IMG/VR virus record: IMGVR_UViG_2563366954_000001
DNA: 9,059 nucleotides
Direction: 5' to 3' (one strand)
DNA from: a virus
Lineage: Monodnaviria; Loebvirae; Hofneiviricota; Faserviricetes; Tubulavirales; Inoviridae
The notes under the pieces were generated by a model, which was not told the origin of the DNA, ran no database searches, and saw nothing but the letters and a program-made list of their open reading frames with translations. The position numbers were made by a program, and so were the translations under genes. This document shows positions 1 to 14 of the stretch, one piece after another. Numbering within the stretch: the stretch's first letter is position 1; each line of letters starts with the position of its first letter.

Positions 1-14
1 ACATTATGCGCACC
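1..14 (-). other. Partial dif-like XerCD site: XerC-binding arm plus 3 nt of central region, cut by the window start
   Basis: Reverse complement of 1-14 is GGTGCGCATAATGT, which equals the XerC arm (GGTGCGCATAA) plus the first 3 nt (TGT) of the central region of E. coli dif (GGTGCGCATAA-TGTATA-TTATGTTAAAT, from memory). The XerD side lies outside the window. Confidence 0.6.

Follow-up and report, generated by a model that had tools for sequence, protein, structure and literature searches.

The attachment site of CTXφ, attP1 (AGTGCGTATTA-TGTGGCGCGGCA-TTATGTTGAGG), has the same XerC arm as V. cholerae dif1 and, in its 12-nt spacer, the TGT of dif1 (PMC3089051). An inverted second site, attP2, has a 5-7-nt spacer and pairs with attP1 in the (+) ssDNA, which is the real substrate of the reaction (PMC4246890, PMC3089051). 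One strand pair is exchanged by XerC and replication completes the integration. Excision of the duplex prophage is precluded by the spacers, which are unworkable in both duplex sites, and the phage therefore needs tandem copies and rolling-circle replication for its production (PMC3089051, PMC4246890). CUS-1φ and YpfΦ have been classed as CTX-type, with attP features for direct ssDNA integration (PMC3089051, PMC4246890, PMC4266046). Members of the CUS-1/YpfΦ lineage are 99% identical over ~7.1 kb and have variable accessory ends, and YpfΦ integrates at dif in arrays of two to four copies, with dif regenerated at one end and inverted XerC/XerD sites (PMC4266046). Tandem repeats at dif have also been described for UPφ, where the repeat covers approximately the first 15 bases of dif (Shapiro & Turner 2020, PMC7307601).

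The stretch of DNA analysed here (the window; 9,059 nucleotides) is one complete genome unit of a CUS-1/YpfΦ-type inovirus without an integrase. Positions 1-7330 are 99.6-99.7% identical at the DNA level to the Y. pestis YpfΦ prophage (~7.3 kb), and the core proteins of the tandem prophage of NU14 are identical to those of the window (same RefSeq accessions); the window is therefore a member of the published lineage that includes CUS-1 (CUSφ) of E. coli O18:K1:H7 and YpfΦ of Y. pestis. It differs from YpfΦ in the accessory region beside attP (~7331-8975), and from both phages in that zot of the window copy alone has lost 507 bp in frame. When the window was compared by megablast with deposited phage genomes, which evidently do not include CUS-1 or YpfΦ phage records, there were no matches, and a protein search against deposited phages matched only I2-2, at 58%, and one distant virus. 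The genes of the window are as follows.

155 to 403, minus strand: 65-82-aa hypothetical protein at the dif-proximal end (phrog_6642)
549 to 797, minus strand: 82-aa hypothetical protein at the dif-proximal end
886 to 2130, minus strand: gene IV-type secretin (PF00263)
2130 to 2648, minus strand: remnant of the Zot/gene I assembly protein, 172 aa, with the in-frame 507-bp deletion between 2540 and 2541
2652 to 2939, minus strand: DUF2523 protein at the gene VI position (domain match)
2952 to 4664, minus strand: large virion/adsorption-type protein at the gene III position (phrog_3942; function inferred from gene order; RefSeq start at window 4514)
4729 to 4962, minus strand: probable major coat protein (weak Phage_Coat_B match; phrog_2186, virion structural protein)
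4997 to 5248, minus strand: small membrane protein (phrog_3679)
5251 to 5568, minus strand: gene V-type ssDNA-binding protein (PF17426, E 1e-52)
5580 to 6632, minus strand: G2P, the gene II-type rolling-circle replication protein, with 100% protein identity to its counterpart in Y. pestis YpfΦ
6804 to 7250, plus strand: HTH_3 repressor-type regulator, divergent from gene II, at the RstR position (domain/PHROG match; PMC4266046)
7347 to 7769, plus strand: 140-aa protein common to many relatives (phrog_4174, function unknown)
7871 to 8974, plus strand: 367-aa cargo protein adjoining attP (PHROG 17621)

Pfam, PHROGs and NCBIfam scans of the annotated ORFs found no recombinase or integrase, and an Rfam scan of the window found no family. 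The non-coding sequence that separates the secretin-side ORFs from attP includes, directly after the 82-aa ORF, a perfect short inverted repeat (GAAATTTCGT ACG CACGAAATTTC-like; window 520-560, minus strand), which may be a terminator, a packaging signal or an origin element. The zot/gene I ORF has half the expected product, with 172 aa versus 341, and the loss of 169 codons left no flanking repeat. The 507 bp are kept in all of the ~50 relatives examined, with the break point always the same, and a query spanning the deletion junction gave, in the best 10 of 103 records from complete E. coli genomes, split matches only, again with the 507 bp kept. Judged from this deletion, the window copy is probably defective for virion assembly by itself, or else the 507 bp are missing through an artefact of the source record.

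Both ends of the window, and the region that leads up to its right end, are occupied by attachment-site elements.

1 to 11, minus strand: XerC-binding arm of attP1, GGTGCGCATAA, identical to the XerC arm of E. coli dif
12 to 14, minus strand: TGT, nucleotides 1-3 of the attP1 spacer, the sole spacer homology with dif (TGTATA) and invariant in all relatives
1 to 16, no strand assigned: one prophage-flanking copy of the 16-bp direct repeat ACATTATGCGCACCAA; the other chromosomal copy lies immediately past 9059
8981 to 9007, plus strand: attP2, an inverted dif-like site found by an independent pattern search, which pairs with attP1 in single-stranded DNA
9008 to 9040, no strand assigned: GC-rich connector stem-loop (AGGCCGCTGCG, 11-nt loop, CGCAGCGGCCT) that links attP2 to attP1 and forms the tip of the forked hairpin
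9041 to 9051, minus strand: XerD-like arm of attP1, TTATGTTGAAA, 9/11 to dif
9052 to 9059, minus strand: rest of the 11-nt attP1 spacer, GCGACTCG; the spacer has 10-11 nt in all relatives

The first-pass annotation had recognised the XerC arm of dif plus TGT, in reverse complement, in positions 1-14 of the window, and the match is indeed exact: ACATTATGCGCACC is the reverse complement of GGTGCGCATAA followed by TGT, that is, the E. coli XerC arm plus three central-region nucleotides of dif, which in E. coli K-12 reads GGTGCGCATAATGTATATTATGTTAAAT (Carnoy & Roten 2009, PMC2731167). This 14-mer occurs once in the window and in none of 200 dinucleotide-preserving shuffles; its chance expectation is zero, and a chance origin is excluded. 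The other end of the window (9041-9059, tttcaacataacgagtcgc) reads GCGACTCG and then TTATGTTGAAA in reverse complement. Positions 9041-9051 thus supply an arm that matches the XerD arm TTATGTTAAAT at 9/11 positions, and positions 9052-9059 supply eight extra spacer bases, in agreement with the earlier description of a XerD-like arm with additional central nucleotides in the same orientation. The XerD-like match is not significant by itself (nine window sites have two or fewer mismatches, versus 7.1 expected); it gains weight because it adjoins the XerC arm across the circular junction, has a pairing partner and is kept in relatives.

The window was also held to be cut 3 nt from the boundary between the XerC arm and the central region, close to the expected crossover. 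The position is correct, but the cut does not coincide with the cleavage site of XerC, which lies at the arm/spacer boundary itself. attP and dif have TTGGTGCGCATAATGT in common and diverge directly after it (TGT followed by G in attP versus TGT followed by A in dif), and the window spans the first base of one repeat copy to the base preceding the other. A cut 3 nt past the arm/spacer boundary is therefore where the identity between attP and dif ends, not where cleavage takes place. The same trimming at the repeat is seen in several IMG/VR contigs of relatives.

That the ends of the window are contiguous is borne out by the circular record NZ_CP128883.1 (strain TUM14759, 9565 bp), which reads ...ttttcaacataacgagtcgc joined directly to acattatgcgcaccaatgg, the window end followed by the window start, and by the internal junctions of chromosomal tandem arrays, which run from window end to window start as in the circular record. 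The window is 100% identical to the chromosomal prophage of ESBLEC_MG32 and to the TUM14759 circle, except for the 507-bp gap. With an inovirus gene set and with both a circle and chromosomal copies found, its description as a circular phage genome or prophage was correct. Of 5426 complete E. coli genomes, 82 contain at least 80% of the window. When the junction was used as a query, 7 genomes matched the circle junction exactly and many more had cargo-variant junctions, and the zot fragment has a median of two copies per carrying genome (102 genomes). Arrays were read directly in three cases. In CUWW06, a perfect tandem dimer contains a single dif and a single hybrid site, and its one internal attP junction is identical to that of the circle; NU14 (O18:K1:H7) carries the prophage twice in tandem; and TUM14759 has three chromosomal copies in addition to the free 9565-bp circle. 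Of the two outcomes that had been proposed, Xer-mediated excision or tandem-array formation, these arrays support the second, and Xer-mediated excision was not supported.

We then read the chromosomal flanks of the ESBLEC_MG32 copy. The bases preceding window position 1 are ...atttaacataatat, which together with window 1-14 give a complete canonical dif in reverse orientation; the intact dif on this side of the prophage is ATTTAACATAATATACATTATGCGCACC, and in chromosomal copies such a dif is composed of the phage XerC arm, the host TATACA and the XerD arm. Past window 9059 the chromosome reads acattatgcgcaccaa, and the sequences around the two window ends show that a 16-bp direct repeat borders the prophage on both sides. 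On the far side, the host XerC arm is joined to the 11-nt phage spacer and the XerD-like arm, giving the hybrid site TTTCAACATAA-CGAGTCGCACA-TTATGCGCACC. Since this copy has dif on one side and a hybrid site on the other, its flanks are Xer-related, and the refuting outcome named at first pass, flanks with no relation to Xer sites, did not occur. The predicted empty site (left flank, dif and right flank) was found at 100% identity and is contiguous, at no less than 80% coverage, in 3337 E. coli genomes, always next to hipA, and the prophage lies at the dif adjoining hipA in every copy examined. Integration at the dimer-resolution site is thus confirmed by exact dif junctions and by a reconstructed empty site, and the exact boundaries of the prophage are now fixed.

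These data leave next to no probability for the reading that the likeness to dif is fortuitous or an assembly artefact, with ends that are not truly contiguous and an element that does not lie at dif. No point in its favour was found; the zero chance expectation of the 14-mer, the recurrence of the junction in an independent circular record and in several chromosomal arrays, the constant position of dif beside hipA and the exactness of the empty site all stand against it. The result also confirms that a Xer/dif attachment site can be recognised, and circular contiguity inferred, by reading the raw sequence without tools. One further record, NZ_CP141085.1 (L053), is labelled as a 385-kb plasmid and spans attP1, and it was considered as a case of phage integration into a plasmid. 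We rejected this candidate: the record holds a chromosomal fimA-hipA segment (fimA ... hipBA, tam) with a UPφ-type tandem dimer at dif, and it looks like a chromosomal segment that was assembled or labelled as a plasmid.

Read along the minus strand, the junction consists of GGTGCGCATAA, TGTGCGACTCG, TTATGTTGAAA, AGGCCGCTGCG-loop-CGCAGCGGCCT, CTTTAGCATAA, CGTCA and TTGTGCGAACC. The first three segments are attP1, with its XerC arm (GGTGCGCATAA), 11-nt spacer (TGTGCGACTCG) and XerD-like arm (TTATGTTGAAA). The last three are the complement of attP2, which reads GGTTCGCACAA (XerC-like, 9/11), TGACG (5-nt spacer) and TTATGCTAAAG (XerD-like, 9/11). As presumed (+) ssDNA, the 95-nt attP stretch is predicted to fold into a forked hairpin of -31 kcal/mol (shuffle mean -13.3; z = -7.4), and none of 200 shuffles was as stable. 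In this fold, the XerC-like arms pair together, the XerD-like arms do likewise, and the spacers form an asymmetric bubble. The complementary strand folds nearly equally well (-29.1 vs -31 kcal/mol), a difference too small for folding to single out the (+) strand. An Ff-type gene II nick sequence was sought and not found, and the (+) strand was therefore assigned, as the minus strand of the window, from the orientation of the core genes alone.

To follow the attachment site among relatives, loci were retrieved via G2P from Y. pestis, Klebsiella, Brenneria, Photorhabdus and Phytobacter, together with 39 IMG/VR contigs that include the UPφ group. Among 13 distinct hairpin sequences, 96% of cells are paired and five pairs have changed on both sides, a count of double-sided changes that scores G-T as a standard pair. 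None of 500 shuffles attained this value, and in slid controls no more than 27-50% of cells are paired. A single diverged relative, the circular Brenneria contig L009, accounts for most of the compensatory changes, which it has at three pairs of the connector stem and at one in the XerD-arm stem. The covariation support for the hairpin is genuine but thin.

The same pairing data bear on the view that the inverted repeat at 8981-9051 is a mere terminator of the cargo gene, with incidental Xer-like arms, and that only the exact XerC arm matters, for example in short-homology recombination with dif. We consider this highly improbable, even though the GC-rich stem is followed by TTTT directly past the stop of the 367-aa ORF and the same stem lies 3' of other genes, such as SIR2 and AbiJ-like genes. 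A consensus terminator and promoter scan of 8700-9059 found nothing, including at the stem, whose loop has 11 nt, and pairing runs at least 24 nt past the GC stem through both Xer-like arms, with compensatory changes. Moreover, the layout is that of CTXφ attP1/attP2, arm for arm, and an identity of 16 bp is too short for RecA recombination with such precise and recurrent junctions.

In all relatives, the attP1 spacer has 10-11 nt and starts with TGT, and the phage XerC arm tracks the host. The arm is GGTTCGCATAA in the Brenneria and L033 phages, and this is the dif arm reported for a related species, Erwinia carotovora (PMC2731167). The hybrid sites of other hosts combine host-specific XerC arms (AGTGCGCATAA, AGTACGCATAA, GATGCGCATAA, GGTGCACATAA and GGTGCGCCTAA) with the invariant phage TGT-spacer. 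In Y. pestis NCTC5923 (L006, 979-1100), the XerC arm is GGTGCACATAA in the left hybrid site and GGTGCGCATAA at the tandem junction. The host-specific hybrid arms and this difference within Y. pestis indicate that strands are exchanged at the XerC cleavage position, the arm/spacer boundary, or very close to it. The dif given in the literature for Y. pestis CO92 is the phage version, and it may be a regenerated rather than an ancestral site. At the other edge of the hairpin, similarity between relatives stops within 2-4 nt of the outer edge of the XerC-like arm of attP2 (window 8975-8985; L006-L050). The break at the outer edge of attP2 occurs in at least 20 distinct lineages, in which the hairpin is kept and the adjoining sequence is not.

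Taken together, we consider it likely that a CTXφ-type route, in which the phage is an integrative mobile element exploiting Xer (IMEX), best explains the window. The 11-nt spacer and the inverted partner site point to the CTXφ type, for which integration proceeds via folded ssDNA and is considered irreversible. Site anatomy, junctions, circle, arrays, empty site, fold and conservation come from the present analysis; a ssDNA substrate, catalysis by XerC only, irreversibility and dependence on XerCD are what we infer from the CTXφ paradigm and the literature; the mechanism has been shown by experiment for CTXφ only. In the packaged (+) strand, attP1 and the inverted attP2 would pair to form the forked hairpin, which would present one XerC arm and one XerD arm around the unpaired bubble. 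Host XerCD would synapse this hairpin with chromosomal dif, XerC would cut at the arm/spacer boundary, and one strand pair would be exchanged, with the TGT common to both sites stabilising the exchange. The resulting pseudo-Holliday junction would be resolved by replication. The product would read host XerC arm and phage sequence on one side and phage XerC arm, host TGTATA and XerD arm on the other. The first of these would be a hybrid site that is dead, the second a regenerated and functional dif at which further copies could integrate to build tandem arrays. New phage genomes would then arise by G2P rolling-circle replication across two adjacent copies and not by Xer excision. The exchange point at the arm/spacer border is consistent with XerC catalysis on (+) ssDNA, tandem arrays are the rule, and the free circle coexists with a three-copy array.

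It is unlikely, by comparison, that the window follows the VGJφ type, in which the duplex replicative form recombines with dif via attP1 alone and the reaction is reversible, circles being released by Xer excision. attP1 does have correctly oriented arms, of which the XerC arm is perfect and the XerD-like arm matches at 9/11 positions, a free 9565-bp circle is found beside a chromosomal array, and YpfΦ has been reported to be unstable in some lineages (PMC4266046). Against the CTX-type route itself counts the report that YpfΦ stays mostly extrachromosomal in E. coli in the laboratory (PMC4266046). Against the VGJφ type, the spacer of 10-11 nt in all relatives contrasts with 6 nt for dif and 7 nt for VGJφ, Xer recombination between duplex sites has been reported not to tolerate overlong spacers (PMC4246890), and the inverted partner site and its conserved pairing would be without a role. 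Arrays also predominate, as expected if phage production needs tandem copies. The architecture therefore argues against excision, which we regard as the less likely source of circles; in E. coli, where host and phage do not differ in the XerC arm, excised and replicated circles would have the same junction sequence.

The preferred CTXφ-type assignment is also supported by comparison with the other IMEX types. Like VGJφ- and TLCφ-type IMEXs, the phage exploits XerCD/dif and has no integrase. TLCφ uses XafT (DUF3653), a Xer activation factor; the window differs in its 11-nt spacer, its inverted partner site and its lack of a DUF3653 protein, no window ORF having a DUF3653 match. Exchange in TLCφ is XerD-first, at a site with a defective XerD arm (PMC4246890). 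VGJφ has a duplex attP with a 7-bp spacer and integrates reversibly, in contrast to the 10-11-nt spacer and paired inverted site found here. The window has the defining features of neither type, whereas the absence of an integrase, dif-precise integration, the spacer and arms of attP1 and a paired attP2 all agree with the CTXφ type; the inovirus gene set and near-identity agree with CUS-1/YpfΦ, the Zot gene being internally deleted here.

As in CTXφ, the XerC arm is identical to that of the host, the overlong spacer starts with TGT (11 nt here versus 12 nt in CTXφ), the XerD-like arm reads TTATGTTGA..., the inverted attP2 has a short spacer, the attachment site lies between the cargo and the genome end, and tandem arrays are formed without an integrase. 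The two phages differ in host, in core genes that are unrelated in sequence, and in a cargo that is not a known toxin in the window. The gap between attP1 and attP2 is 33 nt here and ~90 nt in CTXφ, so that the hairpin has ~95 nt here versus ~150 nt in CTXφ. UPφ of Enterobacterales (Shapiro & Turner 2020, PMC7307601) shares with the window a gene II/gene V module of at least 85% identity and the same attP hairpin, but its structural genes are of the Lineavirus (IKe/I2-2) type and not of the CUS-1/Ypf type.

The accessory end of the window behaves differently from its core. The 367-aa cargo protein is 29% identical to its NU14 homologue while the cores are >99% identical, and YpfΦ has other genes at the 7871-8974 cargo position, a position held by ctxAB in CTXφ. 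By this divergence, the cargo gene appears to be a very fast-evolving or exchanged accessory gene. Sequence searches of PADLOC, NCBIfam, Pfam and PDB returned no function for the 140-aa or the 367-aa protein, and the only family that the 367-aa protein matched was PHROG 17621, to which no function is assigned.

Copies of the hairpin were also observed next to defence genes. Past the right end of the window in ESBLEC_MG32 (L001, 12581-15350), a 2.7-kb island lies between the XerC arm of the hybrid site and the usual flank. It carries a truncated ISNCY/IS1202-family transposase gene, with an element end ~5 bp from the XerC arm, the spacing published for this dif-targeting family (PMC10132070). 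The island also has a SIR2-type gene (PADLOC PDC-S25, E 2e-82), another attP2/stem hairpin and an end that resembles an inverted repeat. From the attachment site, a 71-nt piece (window 8980-9050, comprising attP2, the GC stem and some of the XerD-like arm but not the exact XerC arm) is present at ~93% identity on ~415 plasmids, mostly E. coli IncF, of which 378 are conjugative. In the IncF plasmid CP043737.1 (L005, 2501-2626), the hairpin, which has the same adjoining end as in the island, directly follows an AbiJ_NTD4/DUF7014 gene and the ISNCY-type transposase gene of the ESBLEC_MG32 island, and an IS200-like element comes next.

The plainer reading of the plasmid and island copies is that they are fossils of old integrations, with purifying selection on the hairpin alone. 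It is conceivable, though we give it little credence, that the ~70-nt folded half-site (8980-9050) serves as a portable, Xer-recognised 3' boundary of cargo genes, loosely analogous to an integron attC site. If true, this would imply cassette-like exchange of accessory and defence genes among dif-integrating phages, IS1202/ISNCY elements and conjugative plasmids, the last of which likewise have a single-stranded stage.

Both the CUS-1/YpfΦ phage and the CTXφ-type attachment site have been described before, and the biology of the window is in this sense already known. It adds another copy to a well-described family with links to extra-intestinal E. coli and the third-pandemic plague lineage, and the fast-diverging cargo gene and the hairpins adjacent to defence genes are the only leads that possibly go beyond what is known. 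For the phage itself, the architecture of the attachment site predicts a stable, array-forming lysogeny rather than excision.
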